Shown here piece after piece: positions 22,679 to 62,582 of a DNA stretch of 64,000 nucleotides. The notes beneath the pieces are model-generated. The model was not told the origin of the DNA. It did no database searches and saw only the letters and a list, made by a program, of their open reading frames with translations. The DNA is from an uncultured Peptococcaceae bacterium (GTDB taxonomy: Bacteria; Bacillota; Dehalobacteriia; UBA4068), in assembly GCA_964372025.1 (NCBI GenBank), contig CAYJPF010000003.1:3334-67333 (forward strand), written 5' to 3'. Position numbers and translations under genes: made by a program. Numbering within the stretch: position 1 is the first letter of the stretch; every line of letters begins with the position of its first letter.

Positions 22679-24622
22679 CTATCCAAACTTAGCAGTAACA
22701 CCGGTAACATTAGCAGAGCTAAAGTCCACGCTACCATAAAATATAGTAGAATGAGTGCTGTGCCCCACATCCCCCGGTCTTCTGCCTACATACAAGTTTC
22801 CGCTTCCCAATGAATGGGCACTAATGTATAAGCTGGAATTAGCGTCGAGACTAATGTTACCCTCGCTGGATAGTCGTATGTCTCCTAATTGGTTCCAGAA
22901 TTTTAAGTCAGCATTTACAGCCGACAGAACAGCTTCGTTATTAGCGTTATCTATTTCAAAATGCATCTTAGAGTCGTTGTCTATACCACCCATCTCGACA
23001 CCGTTATCAGAGACAACAAGATACCCTTGACCGAACATCATATCAGTATAGTCGTTAGCATCGCTTTCAGCAGCGTTAGCATACCCTCTGGCATCACTAC
23101 GTACCGCAGAAGCCGATAGCGTTATCTCTGACCCTAACTCACTGGATACTTGTGTAATGCGGCTCTCTGTGTCTATAAATCCTTGTGCTGTCTCTGCTTG
23201 GTACTGAGTGACTAAAGAGATGGTAGCATAAGTAGCGTCTGCGTATGTGTAGATGTTCGCTATAGAGACAACTGTGTCGGACATGTACTGACTAAGGGTA
23301 ACGTACCCGCCGTCAGTCTTGATATGCACATCATCGCCTTCGTAACTACCGTTCCAATCGAACTTAGGATTATCTACCGTTGAGTTGTCATAGGCAAGCT
23401 TGAACATCTCGACGACGTTAATTAGCTTATCACCTATCAATACTGTAGCTTCAGACATATTCCACACATCGTAAGACCAATCGATAACGCGTAGTTCTTT
23501 TACCTCTAACTCAGAGCCGTCTGTAGAACGAGCGTACACTCTAACGATATCTCCTATCTGGAAAGTCTCGTGAGCATAGTCAGGTTCTTCTCTACGGTCG
23601 TACAGTTGTACACTGTAGTTTTCTTTAGGCTTGCACCTATCTCTTAGTTCTCGCTGTCCCCAATACTTGAGCTGTGTCTGACCGCTGGTAGATGCAGCAC
23701 CTGTGTACTTAATGTTAGGGTTAACGAGATACCCCTCGTACACTTCGTCTGTATAGGAATAGTTCTCGAGGTAAGTCTTGTCGTTGTTTACAGCTTTAAT
23801 GTTTAGGTTTCCGTCTCCTAAGATGTAAGCCTTAGTGACTATGTTGTTGTCTACGGTGATTACAGGCTCAGCAAGCATGTTTTTACCGTACCGTACATCG
23901 TACCCTACCCACGTATTAAAGTCCGTCCCTATCTTGTCTGCGTCTCTTAGAGATACAGTCTTGGCTATACTATCATAAACAAGTACGCCTCCCCATAGAG
24001 TGCGTATATTTTTTATGTTTGTAAGCACATCTTTCATGTCGCTTTCTAAGTTGAAAACACCGTAATCTTCGTCAGGGTCAAATCCATCCACGAGAACATC
24101 ACAAACACCCAAAGACCAACCAAAGCGATTACCTTTAAGCACAGCCCATAGAGCATATCCTGCGCTACCTCTGGGCATAGTAATACCACGACCATCTTTA
24201 ACTTCGCTGTCATTATACTCAACGCCATTGACTGTAAGCTTATTGGTAGTGGGAGATTTAGGCAGTATCTTGACTGTGTGTTCGTCCATAGCCTCTACTT
24301 CTAAGTCCACATTATGCGCTTGAACATAAGTATTGGCAAGCTCATACCACTTTTCTACCAATATAACAGTGATAGTATCACCCTCATAGCGTACGGCTTC
24401 AGTGCTAAGAGCTTTATATATGCGTCCATTAACATGCCATTCATTACGTAAGTCTTTAACGTCTGCCCACTTCTTGCTGTCACGCAATATAGTAAAGGTA
24501 AAGGTGCTCTCACCATCTAACTGCGTATGAACAATAGGATTTATAATACTACCTTGTGCTACTGCTCCATTGGCAGGTTTATTAAAGACAGCTACTCTGT
24601 GCCCGTCTTTATCAAAAACTTG
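22679..24622 (-). CDS. tail-associated (Tal-like) minor structural protein, GTG start
   Basis: N-terminus VAIQVFDKDGHRVAVF...WHVNGRIYKALSTEA resembles the phage minor structural protein N-terminal region; GAAAGGAG RBS before GTG at 24622. Confidence 0.6.
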   Translation of the reverse strand, partial: QVFDKDGHRVAVFNKPANGAVAQGSIINPIVHTQLDGESTFTFTILRDSKKWADVKDLRNEWHVNGRIYKALSTEAVRYEGDTITVILVEKWYELANTYVQAHNVDLEVEAMDEHTVKILPKSPTTNKLTVNGVEYNDSEVKDGRGITMPRGSAGYALWAVLKGNRFGWSLGVCDVLVDGFDPDEDYGVFNLESDMKDVLTNIKNIRTLWGGVLVYDSIAKTVSLRDADKIGTDFNTWVGYDVRYGKNMLAEPVITVDNNIVTKAYILGDGNLNIKAVNNDKTYLENYSYTDEVYEGYLVNPNIKYTGAASTSGQTQLKYWGQRELRDRCKPKENYSVQLYDRREEPDYAHETFQIGDIVRVYARSTDGSELEVKELRVIDWSYDVWNMSEATVLIGDKLINVVEMFKLAYDNSTVDNPKFDWNGSYEGDDVHIKTDGGYVTLSQYMSDTVVSIANIYTYADATYATISLVTQYQAETAQGFIDTESRITQVSSELGSEITLSASAVRSDARGYANAAESDANDYTDMMFGQGYLVVSDNGVEMGGIDNDSKMHFEIDNANNEAVLSAVNADLKFWNQLGDIRLSSEGNISLDANSSLYISAHSLGSGNLYVGRRPGDVGHSTHSTIFYGSVDFSSANVTGVTAKFG

Positions 24623-24644
24623 TATAGCCACTTTAATTCTCCTT

Positions 24645-25439
24645 TCAATACAGCTCGTCTGATTTCCAAAGGAACATCGGATTATACTGCACAAGCATGT
24701 TTGCTTCAGTCTCAGCGTTGAGAGCAGTCACAGCATAACTCTTAGTCTTGGATATCTTAGTAAAGAGATACCCTTTGCTCAGATAACGCATAGCATTAAT
24801 CTGACTGCCATCTATGCCTAATAGGTAACACCTGTCCTCTACAGCGTCTATAACAAGCGAATAGCCTGTGGGTACAGTACTATCCCACTTGAACTCAACA
24901 TCGCCTACAGTGAAATTAGGAGTTACTACGCCTTCTCCTATCGTTGCTGTAAAGCCTATATCAGCATGACCCTTGTTATCTATCATGCCGTTGCCGTGGA
25001 AGGCTACAGGGGCAACCAACGTTCCATATGGTTGTGTCTCAAACGGTATAGACACCTTAATCATGTTGTATTCGTCAAGTATCTCAGCAGACCCGGAATA
25101 TTTCACCTTAAACATAATACCGGCCTTAGTAAACACAAAGTTTTGATACTTGTCTTTAGTACTGTCGAGAGCAAACACTAAGTCGCGTTTAATCTTTTCC
25201 CTTTGCTCGAATGTTCGCCCTGCATACGACACAGCAACTACAGAGAATACCCTGTTCAAGTACTTAGTATCCTTGACTATTTCGCCATCTACACCGGGGA
25301 TATTAACGATAACATTCTCAGCAACTGGGATAGCAGGGAAGTTAGTTTCATCTGTGTTGACAATCAAACCAAAAGGCATAAAGTATATCCTCGGGTCTGT
25401 ATCTCCCACTCTGCCTATAGTAAAGTTAAAATCACTCAT
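24645..25439 (-). CDS. distal tail protein (Dit)-like, siphovirus tail family
   Basis: MSDFNFTIGRVGDTDPRIYFMPFGL...IPGVDGEIV pattern; paralog of adjacent gene. Confidence 0.6.
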   Translation of the reverse strand: MSDFNFTIGRVGDTDPRIYFMPFGLIVNTDETNFPAIPVAENVIVNIPGVDGEIVKDTKYLNRVFSVVAVSYAGRTFEQREKIKRDLVFALDSTKDKYQNFVFTKAGIMFKVKYSGSAEILDEYNMIKVSIPFETQPYGTLVAPVAFHGNGMIDNKGHADIGFTATIGEGVVTPNFTVGDVEFKWDSTVPTGYSLVIDAVEDRCYLLGIDGSQINAMRYLSKGYLFTKISKTKSYAVTALNAETEANMLVQYNPMFLWKSDELY

Positions 25440-26597: not shown

Positions 26598-26628
26598 CCT
26601 CCTAAAAAGAAAAGGGGCAAGCGCCCCT
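26598..26628 (-). terminator. rho-independent terminator (minus strand)
   Basis: GGGGCgcttGCCCC hairpin followed by TTTTCTTTTT on minus strand, immediately after stop of 26633 gene. Confidence 0.55.
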
Positions 26629-26632
26629 CGTC

Positions 26633-28039
26633 TTATATTCTTTCGTATAGATAATACCGCGGGCTTCTGTTTGCACAATCAAGTTCCAACGCTTCCCAAG
26701 AAGTATAGAAGTAATCTCCATTGATTTGCACGTATTTAGAACGATACGAAGAGTCGAACTTCCCGTCATACATATAAGCATCAGCACCCATCACAGTGTC
26801 GTTAATCATAGCCGCAAGGAAGATGTAATGCCCTCCGGTAGAAAAGATGCCGGTGTGACCAGACCTATCTCCACCTACATTAGCAATAACAGCTCCACCG
26901 CGCTTCAGAACCAACTCAGCTTCTTGCCAATCGCTTGTAGTCTGATAATCAACATCCCACTCGTCAGCTACTGCTTCAGAAAGCGTCTTCATGTTTGTTC
27001 CACCTGACACTCTTGCACCACACTCTAAAGCCAGCTCAACCATGCCCTCAACATCTACATTAAAACCCAAGCGAGACAGTACCATAGCCATAGAAGTAGG
27101 GCCACAACCACCGGATGCAACAGTTGCACTCTCGTAGCCCGGTGCAGGGTAAGGCATATTAGGGTAATCTCTTTGATTGAATACAGTAATGTCAGGCTTG
27201 AACTTACTTAAGCTTAACACAAAAGCAGCTCTGTAACCACTGGAAGTAGGATAGTAAATCCTTATTAGTCCATTGATAGTGACATCTCCGATAGCACATA
27301 CGTCACCTTCGGAAATATACCTTCCGCTCTCTATCAATCCAGCTTCGGTGTAAACAGACTGTTTCTCCGTTGAAACTAAAGTTACTTCTTGGTAGTACTC
27401 TGTATCTTCGGGCGGATGCGGCTCTGGTTGTTCTTCGGGCTCAGGCTCTACTATTGCAGGCGCATCATCATAAGCAACAACAGCGTTATATAGATAGTCC
27501 CTTGTGCTGGTGTCATGCCATTCACCTTCAAACAATAAGTACCTGCTTCCACCACCATCGTGATTAGACATGCTTACCATACCTGCGGACATAGCCTTAT
27601 TGCTAAATTGTTCTAAAGTGGTACCTTCATCAACCATGATTACATAGCAATCACCGTTAGCATCCATAGCGAAGCCTATACGATTAGGCTGTGAGTTAAA
27701 TGCAGGGTCACTCCAACTGGGAGGAACATACTTGCCATTGACTACGCTGCCTGTGAACCCGGTAAAGTATTCGTTCCAACCTAACCATGGAGTGCCAAAA
27801 CCAAGAGCTCCATCCTTAGTTATCCCCATACCATAACCATTGCCAGAGTCTTTTACTTGCTTGCCATCCTCAATGATTGTGCCAAGCGGAATGTTCCCTG
27901 TTTCTTTAGACCAATGCACAAATGAACCTGAAAACATAATCACAGGTTTTTCTTTTTGAGCGTTGTACCACTCTGTAGGCGTTTTGCCGCCGAGCCTCAC
28001 AACATCCCATCTTAATCCCTTTGGTAGCTTAAACTTTTT
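26633..28039 (-). CDS. two-domain protein: N-terminal phosphodiester-glycosidase-like domain + C-terminal C39-like cysteine peptidase domain (monocistronic moron)
   Basis: C-terminal GGCGPTSMAMVLSRLG ... GHYIFL (Cys/His dyad of Peptidase_C39_2-type); N-terminal assignment tentative; GTG start with AAGGGG RBS. Confidence 0.55.
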   Translation of the reverse strand, partial: KKFKLPKGLRWDVVRLGGKTPTEWYNAQKEKPVIMFSGSFVHWSKETGNIPLGTIIEDGKQVKDSGNGYGMGITKDGALGFGTPWLGWNEYFTGFTGSVVNGKYVPPSWSDPAFNSQPNRIGFAMDANGDCYVIMVDEGTTLEQFSNKAMSAGMVSMSNHDGGGSRYLLFEGEWHDTSTRDYLYNAVVAYDDAPAIVEPEPEEQPEPHPPEDTEYYQEVTLVSTEKQSVYTEAGLIESGRYISEGDVCAIGDVTINGLIRIYYPTSSGYRAAFVLSLSKFKPDITVFNQRDYPNMPYPAPGYESATVASGGCGPTSMAMVLSRLGFNVDVEGMVELALECGARVSGGTNMKTLSEAVADEWDVDYQTTSDWQEAELVLKRGGAVIANVGGDRSGHTGIFSTGGHYIFLAAMINDTVMGADAYMYDGKFDSSYRSKYVQINGDYFYTSWEALELDCANRSPRYYLYERI

Positions 28040-28074
28040 CACGTCAAAACCCCTTTTCAATTTAGTATGACTTT

Positions 28075-28103
28075 AATATACACCTATAAACATAAAATGT
28101 AAA
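28075..28103 (-). promoter_or_regulatory. candidate minus-strand promoter TTTACA-17-TATATT
   Basis: -10 at 28075-28080, -35 at 28098-28103 (reverse complement), about 35 nt upstream of GTG start. Confidence 0.4.
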
Positions 28104-28460
28104 GTTAATTAAGAGAAATTGTTAGATGTTGTATATATGGCCCTTTGGTGGGCTGGTTGAGCAAATAGCTACTCCCCCCCCCGCACGTGTTTAAAGCAAG
28201 AGAAAGGAGTAGCTACACATATGGCCCTTCGGAGCCGCCGCATATCGCTTTTTGCTATCAGCCGAAACTGAAATCGGATTAACCACCAAGGTCTTGTGTC
28301 AAACGTGGCGGGTGGTCATCCCTTTCCGATTCTCCCCTCATTGCTGAACAAGGACGGGGTCACTGCACTCACAGTGAAATCTTAAAAACAACGTGGCTCT
28401 AACCCACTACATACCGGTGACGAACACGGCACAGGGAATAACTCCACACCCCTGAACAAG

Positions 28461-28500
28461 AGTAAAAATATAAAAGCCCTACAGTGTAAGCGCACTGTAG
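28461..28500 (-). terminator. rho-independent terminator (minus strand)
   Basis: CTACAGTG-taagcg-CACTGTAG 8-bp hairpin followed on minus strand by GGCTTTTATATTTTTAC. Confidence 0.5.
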
Positions 28501-28587
28501 AGCCTTTGTATAACTTAGCATATGCTAAGTTATCATGTATGTAGTCGCTTACCTACAAACAAATAATAGCATACTCGAAAGCGTTTG

Positions 28588-29133
28588 TCAAGCCATGTAA
28601 TGAAAATAACAGTAAATACGCTCGTAAGGTTTTTTACCGCTATCTTCGTCAAACAAAAAGTCCTTAGCCAGCTCAACAAAAAAGCGAGCTTCACCGGTCA
28701 TTTCAGCAATCACAGCACTGCGGTAGTGGTCGTGCCACATAGCATTTAGGACAGCCCAGAACTCCATCTCTGTAAGGTCTGTCATGTCTACGCCATACTG
28801 CTTGCCCACGGCAGTAGTTTGTTGCATGTTCCAGTGTGCGCCCATATGCTTAGCACCGTTAGCTGTATGCCACATTCCGGCTACCCAGTCCTCAAGTTCT
28901 TTATCGCTCAAACGCATTTCGTGGTCTTCGCTATGCATTTCTGCGTCAGGGTAGGTAGCACCTAAAACTTCTGTGTGATAAGTTTTCCAAAACTCACGAC
29001 TACGCATAAGCTTACAAAACTCATACTCATGTACTACTTCGGCTTTCATTGCCGTAGTAAGGGGCATACCTGACTTGATGTCCTCTTGAAGCATTTGCAG
29101 TTTTTTCTCTGCATCAACGCAAGATTTATACAT
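28588..29133 (-). CDS. hypothetical His/Trp-rich protein (181 aa)
   Basis: AGGAGG 8 nt before second in-frame ATG (MYKSCVDAEKK...). Confidence 0.5.
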   Translation of the reverse strand: MYKSCVDAEKKLQMLQEDIKSGMPLTTAMKAEVVHEYEFCKLMRSREFWKTYHTEVLGATYPDAEMHSEDHEMRLSDKELEDWVAGMWHTANGAKHMGAHWNMQQTTAVGKQYGVDMTDLTEMEFWAVLNAMWHDHYRSAVIAEMTGEARFFVELAKDFLFDEDSGKKPYERIYCYFHYMA

Positions 29134-29314
29134 TAGTTTTATCCTCCTGTGTTTCATCTTCGCTTAGCACAGCGTTCATGTCTATGCCAAGCTTGTTTTT
29201 AAGCACCTTGTCGCCCATCTTTAATGCCATCTTGCTGGTGCTTTCAACTATCTTCCGCCCTTCAGCCGTTGTGAATAGGCAAGCAAAAGTAGCTCCCATT
29301 ACAAACTGCTTCAT
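29126..29314 (-). CDS. hypothetical small protein
   Basis: 62 aa from internal ATG; weak RBS. Confidence 0.35.
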   Translation of the reverse strand: MKQFVMGATFACLFTTAEGRKIVESTSKMALKMGDKVLKNKLGIDMNAVLSEDETQEDKTNV

Positions 29315-29315
29315 C

Positions 29316-29762
29316 TTAATTAGCACACTTTCTCTTGCCTTTTACGCCTTGAAGAGTTAAAGAGCACGATGCCGGTGCAAACCTCAAGACGAGTATACTT
29401 CTGCATTGAAGCGTAGTCTGCCACAGGTCAGCAACGCAACCACCTGTACGGCAAGGTAATACTTCATAGACAGGGAGCGTAGTAGTGCCGTCTGTAATCT
29501 CTACAAGATTGCACGAGCTGTCAAGCGGGATGCTGGCAAATAGACCAACCTCGACACATTCGCAAGCACAGAGACCTGTTAAAGCTCCATCCGATACAGT
29601 TACGGTGTACTTGCCGCTCTTTAAAGTTACACTGCTGGCTCGCAGTACGCAGTTACAATTACTCATTTTAGTAGTTCTCCTTTTAAGTTTTATTTCGTTA
29701 GTCGCAGTCGCAACTACAATTCCGTTAATGCTAAAAGACGCTGTGTTTATGATACTAAGCAT
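29316..29762 (-). CDS. Cys-rich protein (12 Cys in C-terminal 116 aa); start ambiguous (29762 or 29666)
   Basis: N-terminus MLSIINTASF resembles MSIVNTANF of upstream gene (shared TAAACACAGC DNA); internal AAGGAG RBS before MSNCNCVLRAS. Confidence 0.4.
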   Translation of the reverse strand: MLSIINTASFSINGIVVATATNEIKLKRRTTKMSNCNCVLRASSVTLKSGKYTVTVSDGALTGLCACECVEVGLFASIPLDSSCNLVEITDGTTTLPVYEVLPCRTGGCVADLWQTTLQCRSILVLRFAPASCSLTLQGVKGKRKCAN

Positions 29763-30106
29763 TGATAGAGTATCAAGTGGCTCGAGTTAGGCATCCAGTT
29801 GACTTCTATATGTGAAGGATTGCCTTCTAAGGGTTCGGCATCTACAGTAAGCGTACCTTCTATATAGCTTAATGCTGAAGGCAGGGTGTCACTAAAGACT
29901 TGATTGGTAAGTTGACCGTTGAAGTCGCTTATTTCGATGGTAACAGCATAGGTAATCACGTCTCCACGATAAACTGAACTTGGGTGAGCTTTTTTGCTAA
30001 TAGTCACAATAGGCTCAACAAGTTGCTCTACAGTGGAGCTGGCATTAACTACAAAGTCTTCATCTCGGAAGCGATAATTAAAGTTAGCTGTGTTTACAAT
30101 TGACAT
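29747..30106 (-). CDS. DUF11-like beta-sandwich (conserved repeat domain) protein
   Basis: YRGDVITYAVTIEISDFNGQLTNQVFSDTLPSALSYIEGTLTVD resembles the DUF11/B_ant repeat pattern. Confidence 0.45.
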   Translation of the reverse strand: MSIVNTANFNYRFRDEDFVVNASSTVEQLVEPIVTISKKAHPSSVYRGDVITYAVTIEISDFNGQLTNQVFSDTLPSALSYIEGTLTVDAEPLEGNPSHIEVNWMPNSSHLILYQCLVS

Positions 30107-30192
30107 GATAGCCTCCTAAATTAAAAGAGGACGGTCTCCCGCCCTCTAAGTCACGCCGAAGCGGAAAGTCACAATAATTTCTTATTGGAAAA

Positions 30193-30711
30193 TTAGCAGC
30201 CGAATCCGCCTACAGGACTACCACTGCATACATAAGCCTGACCGTAAAGTCTGGGCTCTTTCAGCATCTCGCAACGGATAGCGTTAAGCTCTGCTTTGAT
30301 AGCAGCAGTCTCAGCTTGCGAAACGAGGTCGCGCTTAAGGGTTGCTACCTCAAGGTTAAGTGCGTTCTTCTCTTGTCCATCAAGGATAGCACGTGATTGT
30401 GCATCAAGCTTGAGGTCAAAGATACGCTCTTGAAGTCCAGCCTCATACTGGCGCGAAGACTGGTCATACAGTCTCTGAGTGTTGGCGTTATTAGCTTCGA
30501 TTGTGCGGTTTGTGGTTTGCTCAATCAGATACTGAGTACGAGCGGTATCTATAATGCCTTGTTTTTCAACTTCGCAGTTAGATACACGGTTGCAACCAGC
30601 TTCATTGTAGCGATTACCAAACAGTCCGCCGCCGAAAATCAGCCAAATGATAACGATGATAAACAGGATACCAATGGTTGAGTTCGAGCTTGTGTCTCTT
30701 GTTTCCCACAT
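30193..30711 (-). CDS. membrane-anchored coiled-coil protein with Cys-rich ends
   Basis: N-terminal TM IGILFIIVIIWLIFGGGLFG, long helical region, C-terminal YVCSGSPVGGFGC. Confidence 0.5.
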   Translation of the reverse strand: MWETRDTSSNSTIGILFIIVIIWLIFGGGLFGNRYNEAGCNRVSNCEVEKQGIIDTARTQYLIEQTTNRTIEANNANTQRLYDQSSRQYEAGLQERIFDLKLDAQSRAILDGQEKNALNLEVATLKRDLVSQAETAAIKAELNAIRCEMLKEPRLYGQAYVCSGSPVGGFGC

Positions 30712-30749
30712 AGTGTTTTGCTCCTTTCAAAAAATATTTATTTCGTCGC

Positions 30750-31115
30750 CTATTTCAGACGAGGAAATTTAGGTTTATTGCTGTTGGAGCTGGATTTATT
30801 TGAGCTTTGTGGCCTGTTTACTCCGCCACTTTTAACTATATTTAATCCTTGTTGTTTTAACTGTTCGGGACTTGTTCCTACAAGGCTTAGCAGAGTCTTA
30901 GCCATTGGATTACTCCCGTATCTATTATACAGTTCGTTTATTCCTTGCTCAGTAATACCAAAGTTACGAGCAATGTCACCTGCTTGGTCGTCAGTTGCTC
31001 CCTGAACTGCTTGGCTTGCTCGTTTTACTGCTTCCTGTATTTCGTTTTGGTTGCCCGGAAACATCTTCATCAACTGTGACAGTATCATTTGTGTGTTGAA
31101 CATTTGCATTACCAC
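30750..31115 (-). CDS. hypothetical protein
   Basis: ORF; overlaps 30991-31416 by about 115 nt in another frame; true start uncertain. Confidence 0.4.
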   Translation of the reverse strand: MVMQMFNTQMILSQLMKMFPGNQNEIQEAVKRASQAVQGATDDQAGDIARNFGITEQGINELYNRYGSNPMAKTLLSLVGTSPEQLKQQGLNIVKSGGVNRPQSSNKSSSNSNKPKFPRLK

Positions 31116-31416
31116 CTTTCAGTTCTTTTAACAACTGTAGTATCTCAAGGTTAGCCGCTTGGCTCTGCCTAAGAGCTTCTTGCGTCTCTTGCAAAATCTC
31201 TTCAGAAGTCTTTTCAGGTACGATGATGCCTACTTCGACAAGCTTGTTGTAATATTCAACTGTAGTCTCTTCTAAGGCGTTGTAGCGGTCGTTAGTATGC
31301 CCTATAGGTTGCTTGCCTGTATGGAAGTCTATGGCGTATATAACACCATCTTCTACTACACAAGGGATACGTGCGTTGCCTGTACTAAACTGGGCGTTGT
31401 AAGAAAAATCACTCAT
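30991..31416 (-). CDS. hypothetical protein (142 aa)
   Basis: AAAGGTG RBS before ATG at 31416 (MSDFSYNAQ...). Confidence 0.45.
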   Translation of the reverse strand: MSDFSYNAQFSTGNARIPCVVEDGVIYAIDFHTGKQPIGHTNDRYNALEETTVEYYNKLVEVGIIVPEKTSEEILQETQEALRQSQAANLEILQLLKELKGGNANVQHTNDTVTVDEDVSGQPKRNTGSSKTSKPSSSGSN

Positions 31417-31582
31417 AATTAACACACCTTTCTTTGTTGCAGCGACTGAGTGGGTGCAGGTGTGATACACCCACGTCTGCCGCCGCTATATACATGGGGG
31501 GAAGGAACGGGAATAAAAAACTCCCTACCTTGATACTACAAGATAGAGAGTATATTCATAAGTACTCTAAAGGTACTAATTA

Positions 31583-32932
31583 TTATTTTTTCTTTTGGTT
31601 TTTCTTTAGCTCTGGGAACACCTTAGCAACCTCACCAAAGTAGTTCTTACACGTTTGTTCAGAATAGCCAATCTCTAAAGAGACCTGCTTCATTGTCATG
31701 TTATCCACACAATACATTAAGGTTATCTTCTCGTGTAAGTTTCTAAAACCAGCTTCATTAAGTTTTAGCTTCAACTCATGTTTAGGTGAAAACAACATCT
31801 TTAGTTTAGCAATGAAGGGTTTGTCTGCTATATAATCAAATGCCTCTCTTATCATATACAGAATAAAGTCAACAATCAGTGCGACGATAACTGTGTTGAA
31901 GATAGAGAAAGCAATTCCGGTTGTATTAAATAACGCTACACACAAAGTGATTGTAGTGATACATACGCAAGCAATCTTGACCAGATTAGCTCTAATGTTA
32001 GGAATATAGTCTGCGTGAAACTGCTTTGGAAATAGCTTTCTTAGTGCTAAGTATGCAACGTAAAGAAAAACTGCCTCAACTACTCTGCCTATAAAGTACG
32101 CATAAAGCAAGTACAATCCATAGACAAATATAAGCGGAGGCAAATTCTTCTTCAAGTCGTGCCGAAACTCAAGCTTCAGGTAATGCTTGAAGTTCTTCGA
32201 GTTCCGTGTGAAGCTTGTGCAAACGCCAGCGAATATACTCTTTTTCGCTTTCGTCTGTCGAACCTTCAAAGCGCTTGACAAGGTTTGCAATGCTTCCTTG
32301 AATACGCTTGCGCTCTTCTTCCATGAAGCCGAGGCCCCATCTAAACACAATAGCCATTTGCGTCCACCTACCTTTATATTTATTAGAGTTATAATCCATA
32401 AAAGATAATAGTCAACAGAATATATCGCAGACATTGCAAAAGACTGTGATTGTTCTATTAAAGATAAATTAAGAACAAACAGCGAACAAAAACTGAAAAT
32501 GCTATCTAAAACAAACAAGCACATCGTAGGCGCAAGGCGCTTCGTAAATAATAACGGAATTGCATAAAAAGAAAAACTTAGAATTGCTACTAACACATTC
32601 CATTCTTCCCCTGCGAATAAAGTGTTGATAACAATTAAATAAGATGTTACAAAAGTATTAACAATTAAGGCTCTACTTTTGTAATTTGGGATAACACAGG
32701 CGTACATTAGGTTAATGCCTATCATGCCCTTGATTACGTTAATTATACCTCTCGCCCAGTCGTTGCTGTCTACAAAATAAATAAAAGCGTTGAGTCGAGA
32801 ATTAGTTATCTCTACACCAAACGCTTCTATGCCGAAAAGCTTCAGTGTAAACGTAGCAAACAAGAACACCCAACACAAGGTTAGCACTCGACTCATTATA
32901 GCCGTGAAATGTGCTCTTGTCATAATAGTCAC
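31583..32932 (-). CDS. polytopic membrane protein with C-terminal sigma70-region4/LuxR-like HTH
   Basis: multiple TM helices at both ends; C-terminal MTMKQVSLEIGYSEQTCKNYFGEVAKV; hydrophilic central linker contains an alternative-frame ORF. Confidence 0.5.
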   Translation of the reverse strand: MTIMTRAHFTAIMSRVLTLCWVFLFATFTLKLFGIEAFGVEITNSRLNAFIYFVDSNDWARGIINVIKGMIGINLMYACVIPNYKSRALIVNTFVTSYLIVINTLFAGEEWNVLVAILSFSFYAIPLLFTKRLAPTMCLFVLDSIFSFCSLFVLNLSLIEQSQSFAMSAIYSVDYYLLWIITLINIKVGGRKWLLCLDGASASWKKSASVFKEALQTLSSALKVRQTKAKKSIFAGVCTSFTRNSKNFKHYLKLEFRHDLKKNLPPLIFVYGLYLLYAYFIGRVVEAVFLYVAYLALRKLFPKQFHADYIPNIRANLVKIACVCITTITLCVALFNTTGIAFSIFNTVIVALIVDFILYMIREAFDYIADKPFIAKLKMLFSPKHELKLKLNEAGFRNLHEKITLMYCVDNMTMKQVSLEIGYSEQTCKNYFGEVAKVFPELKKNQKKK

Positions 32933-33015
32933 ACCTGCTTTATAATTGAGGGAGGCCGCCGCCCGGCGAGAAACGACGACCTCGGAGGTTTTAAATGGAA
33001 TCCAACTGTACCTTT

Positions 33016-33044
33016 ATAGTAGCACGATACCCACTATTTGTCAA
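33016..33044 (-). promoter_or_regulatory. minus-strand promoter TTGACA-17-TACTAT
   Basis: -35 at 33039-33044, -10 at 33016-33021 (reverse complement); spacer ends aTCGTGC as in promoter at 13522. Confidence 0.5.
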
Positions 33045-33095
33045 CACACTTCTAAAGAAATAGTGTTTAAAAATATATTAACAAAAGATTAAGTT

Positions 33096-33572
33096 TCACT
33101 TAGCTCTTTTTTCAAGCTTATTAAAGCTTTCAATCCATGTAGGCATCGTTCCATTGCCATTGCTCTTTTCATAAGCATTGTAAAGTTTAATTACCGTCTC
33201 TACTTCGTCATAGGTGCTGTACCCACGTTCTAAAGCTCGTGTAATCAAATAATGCAGTCGTTCGTGAAGCACGGCAATGTTTGCTTCCTGCAATGCCGGA
33301 AGATTGTCTGCAACAGCGTTTAAACTTTCAATCGCTGTGGTTAGCTTGACAATCTGTCCGCTACAGTCTTTCCGGCATTGCAGCCCTGTTTCTAACTTTT
33401 CTCCCATCACTCTTACCTTTTCTTCAAGAGTTGCAATTTTGTTGTTTTGCAATCGTTTGTCTTGAATACGCCTTGCAATTTTCTTGCAAAGAGGGACAAT
33501 AATTTTTGCCAAAGTTAAATACGCACCTCCAATAATGCCAATTAACCCTGCAGCCTCTACAACTTCAAACAC
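33096..33572 (-). CDS. TM + coiled-coil protein, paralog A (holin-associated)
   Basis: N-terminal TM, C-terminal ERGYSTYDE...NGNGTMPTWIE..NKLEKRAK; paralog of 33594-34085. Confidence 0.5.
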   Translation of the reverse strand: MFEVVEAAGLIGIIGGAYLTLAKIIVPLCKKIARRIQDKRLQNNKIATLEEKVRVMGEKLETGLQCRKDCSGQIVKLTTAIESLNAVADNLPALQEANIAVLHERLHYLITRALERGYSTYDEVETVIKLYNAYEKSNGNGTMPTWIESFNKLEKRAK

Positions 33573-33593
33573 ACCTTGCCCCCCTTAGCAAAA

Positions 33594-34085
33594 CTAACTG
33601 GCTCTTTTTTCAAGCCCTCCGTATACTTCCATCCACTTTGCCATAACGCCGTTACCATCGTTTTCTAAATACGCTCGGTGCAGATTGTGGATAACATCAA
33701 ACTCGTCAAAAGTCGTATACCCACGCTCTACAGCCTTTGTAATTAAATGATGAAGCTTGTCGTACATCATAGCAAGATTTGCCGCTTGAAGAGCTCTTAA
33801 CGCAGGTCTGAACCCTTCTGCTTCTTTAATTAACTCCTTTAAGGCGATGCTGTCTTCTTCGTACTTTTCGTCTAATTCAGCACCGGCTTTTACTGCCTCT
33901 TTCAACTCCCTCAAAACCTCCTCCAACTTGGCTATGCGTTCGCCTTGCATTTTTGTTGCCTGTCTTGCATCCCACCATCTACGAATGGGAGGCATGATTA
34001 GTTTTTGAACGGCTATAATGGCTCCGGCTACAATTGAAATTCCACCAAACCAGCCAAGTATTACGTCCATTTGCAAGCTAATCAT
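33594..34085 (-). CDS. TM + coiled-coil protein, paralog B
   Basis: C-terminal ERGYTTFDE...NDGNGVMAKWME..GGLEKRAS collinear with paralog A. Confidence 0.5.
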   Translation of the reverse strand: MISLQMDVILGWFGGISIVAGAIIAVQKLIMPPIRRWWDARQATKMQGERIAKLEEVLRELKEAVKAGAELDEKYEEDSIALKELIKEAEGFRPALRALQAANLAMMYDKLHHLITKAVERGYTTFDEFDVIHNLHRAYLENDGNGVMAKWMEVYGGLEKRAS

Positions 34086-34106
34086 CCTTTCGTTGGGAAG
34101 AATGTT

Positions 34107-34289
34107 TTACAGATGTCCGCTGTCTGTAGGATTGTTTACAATACCAAACGCTACAAGTACCGGCAACAGCACATTTAGGAGTCCGTCAACGGTTGCTGAA
34201 ATGTCAATACCGGCAAACTCTTTTACACAAAAAGTTACCAGTGCTGCGATAGACACCCAAAGTGCCCAACTCTTAAATCTGTTTTGCAT
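34107..34289 (-). CDS. holin, phiLC3/Phage_holin_1-like (60 aa, two TM)
   Basis: NRFKSWALWVSIAALVTFCV...GIDISA...LLPVLVAFGIVNNPTDSG matches phiLC3-family pattern. Confidence 0.6.
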   Translation of the reverse strand: MQNRFKSWALWVSIAALVTFCVKEFAGIDISATVDGLLNVLLPVLVAFGIVNNPTDSGHL

Positions 34290-37551: not shown

Positions 37552-40500
37552 TCAATAGGGCAGTAGCCTAAAGTCTAAGCTACTATATCCCGACTGTCTT
37601 TTCGTAGGTGTAAGATTTACTACTGTATTGTTCGTTGTGCGGGTGTTGTTGTAGTTGTTTTGAGAACCGGTATAACCTGAGCTTCCGCCGGGACTTGTAG
37701 GCATAGAAGGTGTCATCTTCTTCTGTTCTTCTTGGAATTGCCTTAGAACCGCAGCAAAATCTTCCGAGATAGGCTGTATCCAGCCATCACGCCATGCTTC
37801 ATACAAGATTTGAGCACTGCTCTCTCCAACTGATACCATGCCGTGGATAAAGATATCGTCTATCTCTAACCTTGCAGGGTCTGCCCATTCCTCTCCAAAG
37901 ACTTTAGATAGGTCTACAGCAGCAAGTTTGTTGTCTTTCTCCATCTGTTCAAGAACATCAGCCCACATCTTCTCGGCTAAATCGGTAGCCGGTATCATGT
38001 AATCTGTTTTATAGCTCTCCAGCAAGGCTTGATTGTCGTAGGATAGGTTATCCGCATCCAGCTCATTAACTTCATCTACGAGGGCAGATAAAGCGTCAAT
38101 AAGCCTATCAATGACTTCAAGCTCAGCATCTCTTAACGACTCAAGTTGCTCAATCTGGTCATCAATACGCCAGTCCTCAAGTTGCTCATTCCAATCCTTG
38201 TTGATATCAGAAATCTCTTCCATGATATCAGCTTCTTGTTCACGGTACTCTACACCGCTTCGAGCAGAAGCTTCAGCCAAAGACTTACTTGCTTCATCAA
38301 GACGCTCATAGTACTCTTCCTTAGCACGTATACGGTCGTTCTCTTGTTCGACATCCCTAAGCGCATCAATCTGAGCCTGATACCTGTCCTCAATAGCTTC
38401 TTTTTCGCGCTCTAAAGCTTCGATATTAAGCTCAAAGTTCTTTGTTATCTCTTCTTGGGTTTCTGCAAAATTAGACTGTATCTCTACAATTTCATTCTGC
38501 AAGTCCCACCAAGCGGTACTGTTAGCAAGGATGTCTGTAGCATACTCGTTAGGGTCAATAGCACGATATAAATTATTGACCTCGTGTAGTTTCTGCTGTA
38601 TAATCTGAAGCAATGCTACTTGCTCTTCGTCAGATGCGCCTCTTGCTCTTGAAAACTCCAACTCTGCTTCAGCTAAAGCCAAAGCCTCTTCTGCAGCTGT
38701 GATGCGTGGGTCTTCCGTGTCGCTACCGCCATAGCTATCATAGCTGTACGTATCGCCGGAAACATCTGGTAGCTGTACCCCAGCTTCAAGGTTGGCAAGC
38801 TCTTCTTGTATCTGACCTACCATGTCTAAAGCTGAAAGATATTCTTGCTCAGCAGCGATAAAGTCTGCGGTAGCTTCCTCTGCCAAAGAAGAAAACCCTT
38901 TGCGAATGTTAGCTATTTGGATATCTTTTTCGGCTTGTTCTGCAACATTAAGCCACTTCTCCAGCTCTGAGGTAAGCCCTTCAACATTAGTAGAAACAAC
39001 AAGGTTATTGACATTCATACCTTGTGCAAACAAAGCCGAAACCATTTGTGCCTGAGTAAGCAAGCCCTCGGTAGCTTCTTTCATTTGCTCGATACGAGTA
39101 ATAGCGTCTACTATTTCGTTTCCGACATCAACCCAAGCATTAGCGTAGTCCTCTAAGACTCCATTAACGATATCTTGAAGTAACTCTCCAGCCTCTCCAT
39201 TCTCTCGTATATACGCCTGCACATAGCTTTGAATAGCATCCCATGCTTCGCCTTCGCCCTTTACTCTTGCAGCGTTATAAGCATCAAAGTATCCGGACAT
39301 AGCATCTATTGCGTCTTCTACTTCAGCACCGTATAGCTCTTCTACTTCAAGTGCGGCTATCTGGGCTTTTCTTAGGATGTCATCGTTGATTGTATCCCAA
39401 TGCTCCTGATAGTCAGCTTCATATTCACTCATACGAGCTTCAATCGCAGTATATACTTCCTGAACTTCCGAAGGCCATTCGCTGAAGTCCATAGTGTATT
39501 GCTGATTTAACAGTTCCTGCAAACGCTCTAAGTTTTTGTAGATATCAAGAGCGCTGTCTCCAGAAATCTCAAAGGTTCTAAAAAGCTCCTCACCCTTAGA
39601 GTTGATTGTATCTATAGAGCCACCTACCTGTTCAATAAGGTGCTCTATTTCGGTAAGCTCTGGTACAGACTCTCCAAAAGTAAATCCTGTACTTTCAGAT
39701 GACTCCATAAGAAGCCCGCCTTGTTCGTTAATACGATTGGCGTTTGCAACTGCAACTTGATTTTCTATTTCTAAAGCTTTAAGTCGCTCTATAGACTCTT
39801 GCGCTATAAGAGCTATACCAGATTGACGACCATCGTTAAGCTTCTCAATCTGTTCTGCCTCAAGTGCATAAGCTTCAGTGACATCTTTTACCCAACCGCC
39901 AAGAACCTGCCTCTGAGATGCTTCTTCAGTCTGTAATAGCACTGTAGACTTGTACTGGTCTGACAGTTTTTGCATAGCAGAAAGCTCGTCAAACACCTCT
40001 TGTGCTCTATCATTAGCAGCAACAGACATCTCGCGTTGTTTTTCGTTATAATCTTCGATGGCACTAACTATTGCGTTTACAGCAAGAGTGCCGATAGCAA
40101 AGGCGGTAGTCCAACCAGTTATACTTTGGCTAAGAGTTTTGCTGACTTTAGCTGCTGCTTCTACGTTTGGATTGAACTTATTTGCTATGTTTTTTCCAGC
40201 ATTAACAAACGCAGTCCCAACACCACCAATAAACTTAGCAATGTTCTCTTGTTTGATAAGCAAGAAGGCTATCCACACTGCATTGAGCAGAGAAGGTATA
40301 CCACCGATTACGCCTACAAACTTTACAAGTTCGGTAAGCGCAGAAGTTAATCCTTTGAAGAAACTTAGTCCGCTCTCTTCACTAAAAGCTACTGCCAGCA
40401 ATTCAGCTTCATTACGCAGTACTTGGAAACGTACAGCAAGTGTGTTCATAACCTTGACGTTTTCTTCAACTGAATAATTAGAAGCAGTAAGCATACCCTC

Positions 40501-41757
40501 AAGAGCCTTCTCATAGGTGTCCGTACTACCCAACAAACCTATAAAGTAATTCTGCCTAAGAGTACCTGCTGTAGTATAAACGTCCGTAATTGTAGAGGTA
40601 ATATCAGTAGCTTCGGCTTCTAATTGGTCGGCAAACTCACCATACGCCTCAGATGCAAATAATTCATTGAGTACAGCCTGACGCTCTACGTCTAAATTAT
40701 TTATCTCTACAGATAGTGCCTGCCATACTTCAGCTATAGATGCTGCGCCCATTCGGTATCGTTCTACCGTGTCAGCAACGCTACCGCCCAACTGGGCAAA
40801 TACGTCTAAAGAAGATGCACGTGAAGAAAAGTTAATCAAAGAGTTAAGCGCCGTACCAATATTAGCACCGCTACGACCAAGCTCTTCAGACATACCTGTA
40901 ATCAAAGCTATAGTAGATTGCAAAGACAGTCCTGCGTTATCAGCCGCACCACCGGCACGTTGCAAAGCATCGACTATTTTTTCTGAAGTAACAGGAAAGT
41001 TATCAGCAGTTTTGTTTATCTGGTCGATAATGCTTTCCATATCGGAAGCTTCAAGGTTAAACTGAGAGATAACAGCGATAAGCCCTGTTGTAGCATCCTC
41101 AACTTCAAGCTCAGCAGTGTTAACTGCAAGCATGGTAGCACGAGTAAGGTCAAGCACTTCAGCCCACTCAGCACCTGTCTGAGCAAACTTAACAGCCGTA
41201 TCAGATACTTCTTCAAAAGTACGACCGAACTCAATAGCCATATCATAAAGTTCGCCCTGAATAGCTACATCGCCGACATCTTCGTTCAAAACCCTCTGGA
41301 GCTCAACAACAGCCGTTTCGGTTTCAGTGATAACCCTTAGTGTCTCGGTAAAGGCTTCTTTAATTTGGGTGACTAAATAGAACGCCGCCAACCATCTGGC
41401 TTTGTCTGTGATTGTTTTTAAAAACTGAAAAGATGCTCCTTCAGCCTTGGTCGTTGCATCGCTAATGTCAACCATAGACTGTTTGTGTTTAGCTGTTTCA
41501 GGAGCCTGACCCTTATAAGCATCAGTGGCACTTTTAGTAGCCGTAGCAAGTCTCTCTGTGCTTTTGGCAGCTTTATCTACAGCATCACTACTGCCGCTCT
41601 CAACGCCTAATGCCTTATTGAGGTTAATCTGATACTGCGGGTCTGAAGCCATATCTGAGGCAGCTTTCTGAAGGGCAGCCTTTGCCTCGAGAATATCTTG
41701 GTTAAATTGGGTTAAGTCTAAGCCTACCGACGTAAGCCTTGTTAATCCGTCGCTCAC
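37552..41757 (-). CDS. tail tape measure protein (1401 aa)
   Basis: length, extreme helical A/E/L composition, TP901-type core (FQFLKTITDKARWLAAFYL...LISQFNLEASD...LSLQSTIALITGMSEELG). Confidence 0.85.
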   Translation of the reverse strand: MSDGLTRLTSVGLDLTQFNQDILEAKAALQKAASDMASDPQYQINLNKALGVESGSSDAVDKAAKSTERLATATKSATDAYKGQAPETAKHKQSMVDISDATTKAEGASFQFLKTITDKARWLAAFYLVTQIKEAFTETLRVITETETAVVELQRVLNEDVGDVAIQGELYDMAIEFGRTFEEVSDTAVKFAQTGAEWAEVLDLTRATMLAVNTAELEVEDATTGLIAVISQFNLEASDMESIIDQINKTADNFPVTSEKIVDALQRAGGAADNAGLSLQSTIALITGMSEELGRSGANIGTALNSLINFSSRASSLDVFAQLGGSVADTVERYRMGAASIAEVWQALSVEINNLDVERQAVLNELFASEAYGEFADQLEAEATDITSTITDVYTTAGTLRQNYFIGLLGSTDTYEKALEGMLTASNYSVEENVKVMNTLAVRFQVLRNEAELLAVAFSEESGLSFFKGLTSALTELVKFVGVIGGIPSLLNAVWIAFLLIKQENIAKFIGGVGTAFVNAGKNIANKFNPNVEAAAKVSKTLSQSITGWTTAFAIGTLAVNAIVSAIEDYNEKQREMSVAANDRAQEVFDELSAMQKLSDQYKSTVLLQTEEASQRQVLGGWVKDVTEAYALEAEQIEKLNDGRQSGIALIAQESIERLKALEIENQVAVANANRINEQGGLLMESSESTGFTFGESVPELTEIEHLIEQVGGSIDTINSKGEELFRTFEISGDSALDIYKNLERLQELLNQQYTMDFSEWPSEVQEVYTAIEARMSEYEADYQEHWDTINDDILRKAQIAALEVEELYGAEVEDAIDAMSGYFDAYNAARVKGEGEAWDAIQSYVQAYIRENGEAGELLQDIVNGVLEDYANAWVDVGNEIVDAITRIEQMKEATEGLLTQAQMVSALFAQGMNVNNLVVSTNVEGLTSELEKWLNVAEQAEKDIQIANIRKGFSSLAEEATADFIAAEQEYLSALDMVGQIQEELANLEAGVQLPDVSGDTYSYDSYGGSDTEDPRITAAEEALALAEAELEFSRARGASDEEQVALLQIIQQKLHEVNNLYRAIDPNEYATDILANSTAWWDLQNEIVEIQSNFAETQEEITKNFELNIEALEREKEAIEDRYQAQIDALRDVEQENDRIRAKEEYYERLDEASKSLAEASARSGVEYREQEADIMEEISDINKDWNEQLEDWRIDDQIEQLESLRDAELEVIDRLIDALSALVDEVNELDADNLSYDNQALLESYKTDYMIPATDLAEKMWADVLEQMEKDNKLAAVDLSKVFGEEWADPARLEIDDIFIHGMVSVGESSAQILYEAWRDGWIQPISEDFAAVLRQFQEEQKKMTPSMPTSPGGSSGYTGSQNNYNNTRTTNNTVVNLTPTKRQSGYSSLDFRLLPY

Positions 41758-51777: not shown

Positions 51778-52172
51778 GTTGGTAGCACGGTCTTTCCTTT
51801 GTCATTCGCTTCAGCTCGCAACACTGAAACCGCCTTTCGGCTGCTCACTCTTTCAAGTGAGAGTGGATTATATGTCACCCCGTAAGGGTAAGGATTTTTC
51901 TTCCCGCATTAGCTTCGGGCTTTACTCTCCCGTAAGGAGATAATCTCTGAACGTCTCCCATATCTTTCGACTTAGGGCTTTCGCTGCTGAACTTCCATTG
52001 TTACTGCACTTAGCACCTTTCGGCTTTTATTTCAGCTTATGCAATCCCTACGTTTTTTCCGCTTTCGCACTTCGCACTTGCCGTTTCCAGCTTTGCTTTA
52101 GTGTAGGGCTTTAGGATTTACCAGCAATTAACTCTTAAATACGCACAAATTGCTCTGTACGCAGGGCGACTT
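51778..52172 (-). ncRNA. ORF-less structured intervening sequence in terL (candidate group I-type self-splicing intron)
   Basis: about 395 nt with stops in all frames splitting terL immediately after the P-loop-encoding region; contains GNRA hairpins (GCGAAAGC x2, GCCGAAAGGC, CUCACUU-GAAA-GAGUGAG) and the 11-nt tetraloop-receptor module CCUAAG-ucGAAAga-UAUGG. Confidence 0.6.
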
Positions 52173-62371: not shown

Positions 62372-62582
62372 TTTTTCTTCTTCCTTCCTTAATTTTGCCG
62401 TCTATTAGGTCTGAGAGCAGTCTCAAAACAACAGACACTCCCCACGTTAGCACTGTAACGTGTAACGAAAACTCCAGATTTCCTGCCATGCAAATCAACA
62501 AGACTAATGCAGTTGTAATTGCCCAGTCTATAACAAGCGTGAATAGGAAATACAGTGTCAATAAAACCTTAACTTTCTTCAC
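62361..62582 (-). CDS. small membrane protein (two TM)
   Basis: hydrophobic 73-aa ORF. Confidence 0.4.
   Translation of the reverse strand: MKKVKVLLTLYFLFTLVIDWAITTALVLLICMAGNLEFSLHVTVLTWGVSVVLRLLSDLIDGKIKEGRRKSGK

Follow-up and report, generated by a model that had tools for sequence, protein, structure and literature searches.

A probable modular endolysin gene and an EGFOA-like RNA ahead of the Dit and Tal genes of a phage from an uncultured Peptococcaceae bacterium

LysK and PlyC are modular bicatalytic endolysins, and morons are accessory genes of the lambdoid type that carry a promoter and a terminator of their own. Both come into question for a gene that lies directly before the Dit and Tal tail genes of a phage within a contig of an uncultured Peptococcaceae bacterium (assembly GCA_964372025.1, contig CAYJPF010000003.1, positions 3,334 to 67,333). 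This stretch of 64,000 nucleotides is referred to here as the window. An original prediction, made from the letters of the window alone, described the gene as an autonomous unit encoding a two-domain protein beside a GC-rich island without open reading frames (ORFs), and offered several functions for each. Here we analyze the gene, its island and their surroundings. A survey of gut phages catalogues both NAGPA and Peptidase_C39_2 as endolysin catalytic domains, and its endolysin architectures include CHAP-NAGPA-SH3_3 and ones containing Peptidase_C39_2 (PMC13284279); we found no biochemically defined bond specificity for either domain type in any lysin on searching the literature. EGFOA (Rfam RF02955) is an RNA class whose oligomers have been solved by cryo-electron microscopy and which has been assigned neither a function nor a host (bioRxiv 10.64898/2026.07.01.735769).

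From its sequence and predicted structure the gene probably encodes the phage endolysin, in which an SH3-like anchor is combined with a NAGPA-type hydrolase and with a papain-fold peptidase. It would thus be a lysis protein of an ordinary kind that is built from uncommon modules and located in the usual slot of its lineage. The most interesting element of the locus is the EGFOA-like RNA in the island, which we judge likely to be a divergent member of its class. Coordinates of all features are collected in Table 1; loci and proteins retrieved for comparison carry L and P numbers.

A predicted endolysin with two catalytic domains

The lysin gene begins with a GTG codon, as first proposed, but the start had been placed at 28039, giving 468 amino acids (26633-28039). 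The GTG at 28042-28040 is preceded by the Shine-Dalgarno sequence AAAAGGGG, located 7 nt on its 5′ side, and the protein is therefore of 469 amino acids. The GC content of the gene (0.446) and that of its third codon positions (GC3, 0.395) both fall within one standard deviation of the gene means (0.429 ± 0.026 and 0.423 ± 0.039, respectively). A scan of the protein sequence found no transmembrane (TM) segment, signal-like stretch or hydrophobic N-terminus. From 41 sequences AlphaFold2 gave a model with a mean predicted local distance difference test score (pLDDT) of 86.6, which comprises three folded parts and a disordered linker rich in proline and glutamate.

The N-terminal part is matched by Pfam PF09992 (NAGPA) over residues 34-174 (44.4 bits against a cut-off of 25, E 2.6e-11). 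A Foldseek comparison with the PDB relates it at a probability of 1.0 to 6u11, 6pku, 6pki and 3ohg (E 7e-10 to 4e-8). Of these 6u11 and 6pku are vertebrate NAGPA structures (E 7e-10 to 6e-9), and 3ohg is a bacterial DUF2233 protein. The sequence DGGGS is intact at residues 162-166 (469-residue numbering), and is conserved in all the aligned NAGPA homologues. It is described in a structural paper of 2026 as an invariant element of N-acetylglucosamine (GlcNAc)-1-phosphate recognition that includes the catalytic aspartate (PMC13474241). The middle domain finds SH3 folds in Foldseek at probabilities of 0.98-0.99. The same domain also lies C-terminal to NAGPA in P0005 and P0113, and is named SH3_3 by Pfam in P0187; going by the model, this is likely to be the wall-binding module of the lysin.

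The C-terminal part is matched by Pfam PF13529 (Peptidase_C39_2) over residues 286-410 (35.9 bits against a cut-off of 24, E 1.4e-8). Its SGGCGP, GGHY and D-x-x-Y-x-GKF sequences align with those of about 25 homologues, with near-invariant glycines flanking the cysteine and the histidine. Foldseek relates it at a probability of 1.0, with modest E values of 4e-3 to 5e-2, to 3k8u (ComA), 3erv (B. anthracis), 5xe9 and PCAT1. Neither a match to PF03412 nor an ABC transporter domain was found in the protein, so that the features of a bacteriocin-processing C39 peptidase are absent. The original prediction had a phosphodiester glycosidase-like N-terminus and a C39-like C-terminus, and both are borne out by Pfam families above gathering and by folds seen by Foldseek; the Cys/His signature motifs on which it drew, GGCGPTSMAMVL and GHYIFL, are indeed present. 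Taken together, sequence and model reveal wall-directed catalytic domains combined with a wall-binding domain and no secretion signal, as expected of an endolysin. Among viral structures in BFVD, Foldseek matched proteins labeled ‘phosphodiester glycosidase’, ‘PlyB-like endolysin’, ‘cell wall hydrolase’ and ‘peptidase’. For another Foldseek match, ‘P210 CD lyase’, a literature search found no description.

How might such a protein act? Lacking both a signal peptide and TM segments, it would stay in the cytoplasm until a holin acts. It would build up there and reach the wall via the holin late in infection, and a candidate holin encoded in the window is the proposed passage. At the wall the central SH3-like domain would serve as the anchor. 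The NAGPA-type domain is predicted to hydrolyze a GlcNAc-1-phosphodiester or a related glycosidic bond. In Gram-positive bacteria a GlcNAc-1-phosphate linkage unit joins wall polymers to N-acetylmuramic acid (MurNAc). By analogy with the chemistry of the vertebrate enzyme, the most plausible target would be this link, through which teichoic acids or secondary wall polymers are attached to MurNAc. The C39-like domain with its Cys-His-Asp triad may cut the peptides of peptidoglycan, in the manner of the CHAP and NlpC-type domains of other lysins; peptidoglycan is its likely substrate because the domain is fused to wall-targeting modules.

No full-length homologue was found in a word-indexed search, which returned halves of the protein at 40-47% identity. 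An exhaustive search combined with Pfam uncovered P0187 (504 aa, 31% identity), in which NAGPA, SH3_3 and C39_2 follow one another in the same order as in the window lysin. The same search gave many proteins in which NAGPA is fused to Amidase_3, to GH25, or to an Rv2525c-like domain plus PG_binding_1. In the closest homologues the NAGPA-SH3 and C39 halves occur as separate ORFs or separate genes, where the window lysin is an in-frame fusion. The gene for P0001 (NAGPA-SH3) overlaps the end of a Phage_holin_5_2 gene. In L004 the gene for P0005 (NAGPA-SH3) is followed by a C39 ORF and then directly by a Phage_holin_1 gene, and L165 has the order NAGPA-SH3, holin, C39_2-SLH. P0002 (C39_2) is the product of the last gene of a tail module.

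The junction between the two lysin ORFs of L004 (10843-10890) and L005 (6119-6160) deserves separate description. A heptamer G_GGT_TTT is located there, and the NAGPA-SH3 ORF stops 12 nt later, while the C39 part runs on in the -1 frame, where neither ATG, GTG nor TTG precedes the catalytic cysteine. A stem-loop begins 5 nt past the heptamer, of 12 bp in L004 and 10 bp in L005, each of about -23 kcal/mol (z -4.2 and -5.1, respectively). The in-frame junction of the window lysin has neither heptamer nor stem-loop. Apparently the halves in L004 and L005 are joined by a programmed -1 frameshift, which would yield a short and a long lysin. A literature search found no account of a programmed frameshift of this type in an endolysin gene. 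If real, the heptamer and stem-loop between lysin ORFs would constitute programmed frameshifting beyond the classical case of the tail chaperones.

A different role has been considered, in which the protein is a virion-associated peptidoglycan hydrolase, part of the baseplate or tail tip, that pierces the wall at infection. Several observations point this way or weigh against an endolysin. The gene lies immediately 5′ of the two Dit genes and Tal. The BFVD matches of the NAGPA-like fold include virion proteins, both tape measure and phi29 gp13-like morphogenesis proteins. The sole holin-family match of the window is located 6 kb upstream of the lysin gene, and is barely over the Pfam cut-off. 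Lastly, lysis could be carried out by another pair, a second wall hydrolase and its neighbor (62361-63275, minus strand). The former, of 229 amino acids, carries a Hydrolase_2 (SleB-like) domain as well as a TM segment at its N-terminus, and the latter has 73 amino acids with about three TM segments; they are set among replication genes (SSB, DnaB-like). Against a tail hydrolase, the architecture is catalytic-binding-catalytic, and neither Pfam nor the fold searches matched a structural or attachment domain. In addition the closest homologues are found, in all three contexts, within lysis cassettes that include a holin, and the equivalent slot in phages related through Dit and Tal holds a holin-like protein and a small single-domain lysin. 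On this balance we find a tail hydrolase doubtful and prefer the endolysin.

The lysis slot ahead of Dit and Tal

The lysin gene is the first of a terminal late unit, lysin-Dit1-Dit2-Tal; that Dit genes come next had been anticipated, and two Dit paralogues and Tal were found downstream. A search with Dit1 gave a public protein that is 100% identical (P0121, 384 aa), encoded on a 70-kb NCBI contig, and two relatives. L129-L133 have a single Dit-like protein of 430 aa, with which both tandem paralogues can be aligned.

Relatives of Dit and Tal in L129 and L131-133 have identities of 34-52%, and show what the lineage places in this slot. The order in L129 is tape measure, two conserved genes, further genes, a GH25 lysin, a 95-aa protein with two TM segments, Dit and Tal. 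In L131-133 it is a CBM_5_12 protein, a 76-aa TM protein, Peptidase_M23, Dit and Tal. Since a GH25 or M23 lysin with a holin-like protein occupies this position in each, the slot before Dit is the lysis cassette of the lineage, in which the catalytic module is swapped among phages. Holin-like genes adjoin both the lysin homologues of L004, L005 and L165 and the slot-equivalent lysins of L129 and L131. A lysin, there thought of as tail-associated, was among the functions originally offered, and the domains, the homologues next to holins and the lysin slot of the relatives all support a lysin. The order of the tail genes is itself unusual. The tape measure gene is at 37552-41757, and Dit and Tal come about 10 kb later, after fiber genes, other genes and the lysis cassette, where the usual order is tape measure-Dit-Tal; this arrangement is common to the window and its relatives including L129.

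A hairpin with the character of a terminator (T2) lies between the lysin gene and Dit1. Its stem (26629..26612, GAGGGGC/GCCCCTT) is followed by TTCTTTTT, with a folding energy of -15.7 kcal/mol and z -2.3, in agreement with the GGGGC/GCCCC stem and U-run reported earlier ahead of Dit. Dit1 starts 13 nt past the T-run. A promoter scan found no promoter-like site between 28075 and 26590, so that transcription of Dit and Tal must come from further upstream, across the lysin gene and T2. Given that they lack a promoter of their own, T2 would be leaky or overridden. A clear counterpart of T2 is found in L131, where a GC hairpin and T7 run lie between lysin and Dit at 1451-1469, and L129 has a weaker hairpin with a T-run before Dit at 9962-9978.

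Could the gene instead be a moron, gained recently as an accessory or for lysogenic conversion and equipped with a promoter and a terminator of its own? This was the framing of the original prediction, and it has points in its favor. There is a promoter-like site upstream and a terminator downstream. No close full-length relative of the lysin emerged from the databases searched; in particular GenBank phages gave no match when searched with the locus DNA and the lysin protein. The terminase of the window phage has less than 28% identity to any GenBank phage protein. Moreover, the neighboring 6 kb (28.6-34.1 kb) resembles a set of small autonomous units with terminators. Yet relatives keep a lysin at the equivalent position, so the gene is not an insertion between conserved genes. 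The hairpin and T-run before Dit are shared with L131 and, less strongly, L129, and Dit and Tal depend on read-through. The gene is typical in GC and GC3. The proposed promoter, TTTACA-17-TATATT, does exist in the sequence, but it matches at 10 of 12 positions, and 21 sites of that type occur in the region where chance predicts 23.5. We therefore regard a moron as very improbable, and nothing was found to support the suggestions of a lysogenic-conversion gene or a modifier of the host cell wall.

It is rather the adjoining block of about 6 kb (28588-34106, minus strand), between the holin-family gene and the lysin, that looks like an accessory, moron-like region. L129 and L131 have no counterpart of it there. 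It contains ten ORFs with almost no family matches in NCBIfam, PHROGs or Pfam, among them a 449-aa protein with about 10 TM segments (31583-32932), a DUF11-repeat protein (29747-30106), a DUF7841 gene (28588-29157) and two phrog_4257 paralogues with N-terminal TM segments. Terminators are located at 31551 and 30147. L001, which carries a relative of the DUF7841 gene, has no comparable locus.

An EGFOA-like RNA in the island

The island forms the junction of the 6-kb block and the lysin gene. It is more than a spacer: on the coding strand it holds what is likely to be an EGFOA-class RNA, followed by a hairpin with a G9 run, and upstream of these a promoter-palindrome-terminator unit. The EGFOA-like element is laid out as a 5′ pseudoknot strand UUAAG, a P0 hairpin, the motif CCCCGUCCUUGU, helices P1 to P4 and a loop with CAAGACCUUG. 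The Rfam model RF02955 matches the minus strand at 28271-28381 with 25.7 bits (E 0.014 when the intergenic region alone is searched, and 0.097 for 4 kb). The two motifs CCGUCcUnGU and CnAGACCUnG occur at the spacing of the family once in the window and in none of 100 shuffles. Analytically about 2e-5 chance occurrences per window are expected for the motif pair with a complementary variable base, before helices are required. The idea of a small RNA in the island, raised in the original prediction, is in keeping with this element, albeit at an Rfam score below gathering.

Reference EGFOAs were retrieved from IMG/VR by motif and then scored with the Rfam model (Table 1). All are located in ORF-free gaps of 0.8-1.4 kb in viral contigs, and that of L127 lies just upstream of a large terminase and SU10-type portal gene in the same orientation. 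A core alignment of 64 columns, containing the window element and those of L127, L149, L154 and L164, was trimmed by hand. All 26 pairs are standard in all five sequences, with two-sided changes at 18 of them, and no shuffle or slid register approaches the observed pairing; as the alignment is a manual one, fitted to the structure, these figures are biased in its favor. Within the window element 16 of 16 nested pairs are standard, and many covary with respect to the four others. A hairpin directly 5′ of (A)CCCCGUCCUnGU, which the Rfam model does not score, is present in L149, L154, L164 and the window. MAFFT alignments of the elements were structurally wrong in the middle and were discarded in favor of the hand-trimmed core.

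From the five sequences we infer two long-range pairings, both pseudoknots, which likewise do not enter the score of the Rfam model. GUCcUnG would pair with CnAGAC, the variable pair being A-U in L127, G-C in L149, L154 and L164, and U-A in the window. CCcAG would pair with CUgGG; in the window UUAAG faces CUUG(G), a change from C-G to A-U. The comparison also holds in the reverse direction. When the window element served as the only sequence of a covariance model, and 39 kb were searched with it with filters off, the true EGFOAs of L154 (E 0.01), L149 (0.015) and L164 (0.046) were its top three matches. R2, a model built on the trimmed core, missed the window element; this is uninformative because true members also scored poorly with it.

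A number of results tell against membership of the class. The score of 25.7 bits is below the gathering threshold of 37.7, and at gathering Rfam matched nothing in the whole window. The model built from the window element missed the EGFOA of the L127 type, and with default filters found no match. A promoter scan found no promoter for the RNA, which lies 77 nt after a strong terminator (T1). Genome and metagenome scans for a close relative of the island gave either nothing or coding chance matches. An exact 23-mer of the island had no match in genome contigs, nor had a strict EGFOA pattern in 185,579 representative bacterial and archaeal genomes; looser motif scans returned mostly chance matches in protein-coding sequence. 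As true members are on viral contigs and the strict pattern is absent from those genomes, EGFOA looks to be phage-borne. The RNA probably derives from late transcripts, by read-through or by processing.

The likeness could in principle be fortuitous, and the island no more than junction DNA without function, left where modules were exchanged between accessory block and lysin gene. The sub-gathering score would fit, as would the similarly weak and surely spurious match to RsaA in the same Rfam search, a fold for the whole island of z only -1.7, and the lack of island relatives. Set against these are the rarity of the motif pair, the formation of all the helices, compensated changes in both pseudoknots and the ranking of true EGFOAs first in the reciprocal search, which together make a chance resemblance quite unlikely. 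We retain a divergent EGFOA-class RNA as the reading of 28271-28385.

The island has further elements. It has no ORF longer than 40 amino acids in 28040-28600, in line with its first description as ORF-free, and with a GC content of 0.49 (0.429 for the window) it is the GC-richest of the intergenic regions of at least 80 nt (others 0.36-0.48), although the epithet ‘unusually GC-rich’ goes too far. Its upstream end has the best promoter-like site of the region, P1, an 11/12 match with an extended -10 TG that overlaps the stop codon of the DUF7841 gene just upstream of T1. T1 itself has a stem of 15 pairs (28507..28472) with a core of CTACAGTG/CACTGTAG, followed by UUUUAUAUUUUU, the U-run reaching to 28462. 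At -21.8 kcal/mol and z -7.75, equaled by none of 200 shuffles, it substantiates the strong minus-strand terminator earlier placed at 28461-28500. A perfect 24-bp palindrome lies between P1 and T1. The RNA of about 95 nt from P1 to T1 folds at -40.5 kcal/mol (z -7.8) with the palindrome as a 10-bp hairpin, and the palindrome could equally be an operator. Taken as a whole, the unit might represent a small RNA, an attenuator under the control of an operator, or a device like λ PR′-tR′. Weak Rfam matches over it (RsaA, sRNA71 and others) were rejected as generic to hairpin-plus-terminator sequences.

This unit is the basis for reading the island as a cis-acting leader of 400 nt, in which transcripts from P1 stop at T1 unless this is overridden, and the structured leader tunes expression of the lysin and Dit-Tal. 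The strong promoter-like P1 is followed within about 95 nt by both the palindrome and a strong terminator; the EGFOA-like element has no separate promoter; and it is co-oriented with the downstream genes, as is the true EGFOA of L127 upstream of its terminase gene. On the other side, the EGFOAs of L149 and L154 are found in convergent gaps past the final gene of a unit, and not in a 5′ leader. Rfam classes EGFOA as a small RNA, and no antiterminator was identified, the scan having covered plus-strand genes at 14.7-22.0 kb and the far minus-strand end. We consider a leader unlikely. In a more elaborate idea, EGFOA RNAs are late-region RNAs encoded by phages, and here a strong promoter, an operator-like palindrome, a terminator and an oligomer-forming EGFOA fold jointly control whether the endolysin and Dit-Tal genes are transcribed or translated; this is a speculation to which we give little credence. 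If true, it would be the first biological role for EGFOA, in the timing of lysis and tail completion.

Closer to the lysin gene is the G9 hairpin. The 10-bp inverted repeat originally reported (28166-28175 / 28206-28215) is there, and so is the C9 run (plus strand) at 28174-28182, which is the only homopolymer of nine or more in the window. It had been assigned to the loop, but the run is G9 on the transcribed strand and pairs with a CU-rich tract, extending the stem to 20 bp, so that it lies inside the stem. Phase variability, proposed for the tract, is unlikely from its position in a non-coding hairpin, in neither an ORF nor a promoter spacer and 70 nt from the nearest promoter-like hexamer. 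Two CCRAAGGGCCATAT repeats flank the hairpin 84 nt apart; at least two matches occur in 12 of 100 shuffles, and alone they are weak. When the island was translated in six frames and compared by short-word BLAST with the remainder of the window and every fetched locus, no gene remnant and no repeat emerged. With no repeats and no matches elsewhere, a packaging or recombination site, another of the early suggestions, finds no support.

Two further large gaps arise elsewhere in simple gene calls, at 11845-12619 (775 nt) and at 51778-52172 (395 nt, upstream of the terminase gene). The former is a product of ORF selection, overlapped by a 295-aa ORF at 11845-12732, and neither has an Rfam match at gathering. 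A tRNA/tmRNA scan found none.

Table 1. Positions of the features discussed. Coordinates refer to the window unless another locus is named.
Feature	Position	Strand	Basis
Predicted endolysin gene, 469 aa	26633..28042	minus	GTG start 28042-28040, stop TAA 26635-26633; ORF translation
Shine-Dalgarno sequence AAAAGGGG	28050..28057	minus	read from sequence; 7 nt 5′ of GTG
NAGPA-like phosphodiester-glycosidase domain, ~aa 1-192	27464..28039	minus	Pfam PF09992, Foldseek, DGGGS
Disordered Pro/Glu linker, aa 193-217	27389-27463	minus	pLDDT <50 in model
SH3-like all-beta domain, ~aa 218-282	27194..27388	minus	AlphaFold2 model, Foldseek
C39-like papain-fold cysteine peptidase domain, ~aa 283-468	26636..27193	minus	Cys313, His405, Asp421 (469-aa numbering)
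Terminator-like hairpin T2 + T-run, between lysin gene and Dit1	26603..26629	minus	fold energy, z
Dit paralogue 1, 384 aa	25436..26590	minus	TTG start with AGGAGG; PHROG 33 and Prophage_tail matches across Dit1, Dit2 and Tal
Dit paralogue 2, 264 aa	24645-25439	minus	as for Dit paralogue 1, matches across the three genes
Tal	22679-24694	minus	as for Dit paralogue 1, matches across the three genes
Candidate holin, 60 aa, 2 TM	34107-34289	minus	Pfam Phage_holin_1, 22.1 bits against cut-off 22
Probable divergent EGFOA-class structured RNA	28271..28385	minus	Rfam sub-threshold match, motifs, helices, reciprocal model
Promoter-like site P1, TTGACA-17-TGnTATTAT	28591..28563	minus	11/12 match, extended -10 TG; best of region
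24-bp perfect palindrome ATAACTTAGCATATGCTAAGTTAT	28510..28533	.	inverted repeat between P1 and T1
Strong intrinsic terminator T1	28462..28507	minus	15-pair stem + U-run
Direct repeat CCGAAGGGCCATAT, copy 1	28219..28232	minus	flanks G9 hairpin
20-bp G9 hairpin	28165..28216	minus	inverted repeat; -28.6 kcal/mol, z -5.4
Direct repeat CCAAAGGGCCATAT, copy 2	28135..28148	minus	flanks G9 hairpin
Promoter-like site TTTACA-17-TATATT	28103..28075	minus	10/12 match
EGFOA, L127 / L128	659-783 (L127)		Rfam-validated, 68.9 bits; viral contig
EGFOA, L149	5339-5474		Rfam-validated, 44.7 bits; viral contig
EGFOA, L154	2746-2868		Rfam-validated, 49.8 bits; viral contig
EGFOA, L164	328-446		Rfam-validated, 54.6 bits; viral contig

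Comparison with known systems

If the assignments above are correct, the lysin extends the range of modular endolysins by an enzyme in which NAGPA, SH3 and C39_2 are fused. The recurring partners of NAGPA (C39_2, amidase, GH25) point to an uncharacterized lysin activity that would cut wall polymers linked through GlcNAc-1-phosphate, and such an activity would be of interest for the design of enzybiotics. The EGFOA-like copy beside lysis and baseplate genes would place that class in phage biology, and its divergence would mean that the Rfam model misses variants.

The predicted lysin shares with the bicatalytic endolysins two catalytic domains and a wall-binding domain, a flexible linker, the absence of a secretion signal, a place in the late region, and homologues beside holins. 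It differs in that the binding domain lies between the catalytic domains and the holin is not adjacent. The slot between tail-fiber genes and Dit-Tal is also unlike that of usual endolysins. Compared with the NAGPA ‘uncovering enzyme’ and DUF2233 proteins (6pku, 6u11, 3ohg), the N-terminal domain agrees in fold (Foldseek E about 1e-9) and in its invariant DGGGS motif, but has less than 20% identity and no EGF or stalk region. The mannose-6-phosphate glycans on which NAGPA acts cannot be the substrate here, and a linkage in a wall polymer is suggested by analogy. With C39 and C39_2 peptidases (ComA, PCAT1, 3erv) the C-terminal domain shares a papain-like fold and Cys, His and Asp in the positions of the family. 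Unlike the C39 domains of ComA and PCAT1 it has no ABC transporter and no double-glycine leader substrate nearby, and it matches PF13529 only. As in phage morons, the gene lies in the late region with a promoter-like site before it and a hairpin terminator after it; unlike them it occupies a position conserved for lysins in relatives, is typical in composition, and has essential genes downstream that need read-through.

The EGFOA-like RNA departs from the true EGFOAs in having a middle hairpin of 3 bp, a loop of GUUUGACA rather than GUAAAG, and a location upstream of a lysin gene, and its variable pseudoknot pair is U-A where those examined have A-U or G-C. In its 5′ hairpin it resembles the members in L154, L149 and L164. 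With RF02955 as a whole it shares CCGUCCUnGU and CnAGACCUnG, the order of helices P1 to P4, the two long-range pairings, and a setting in a large ORF-free gap of a phage genome.

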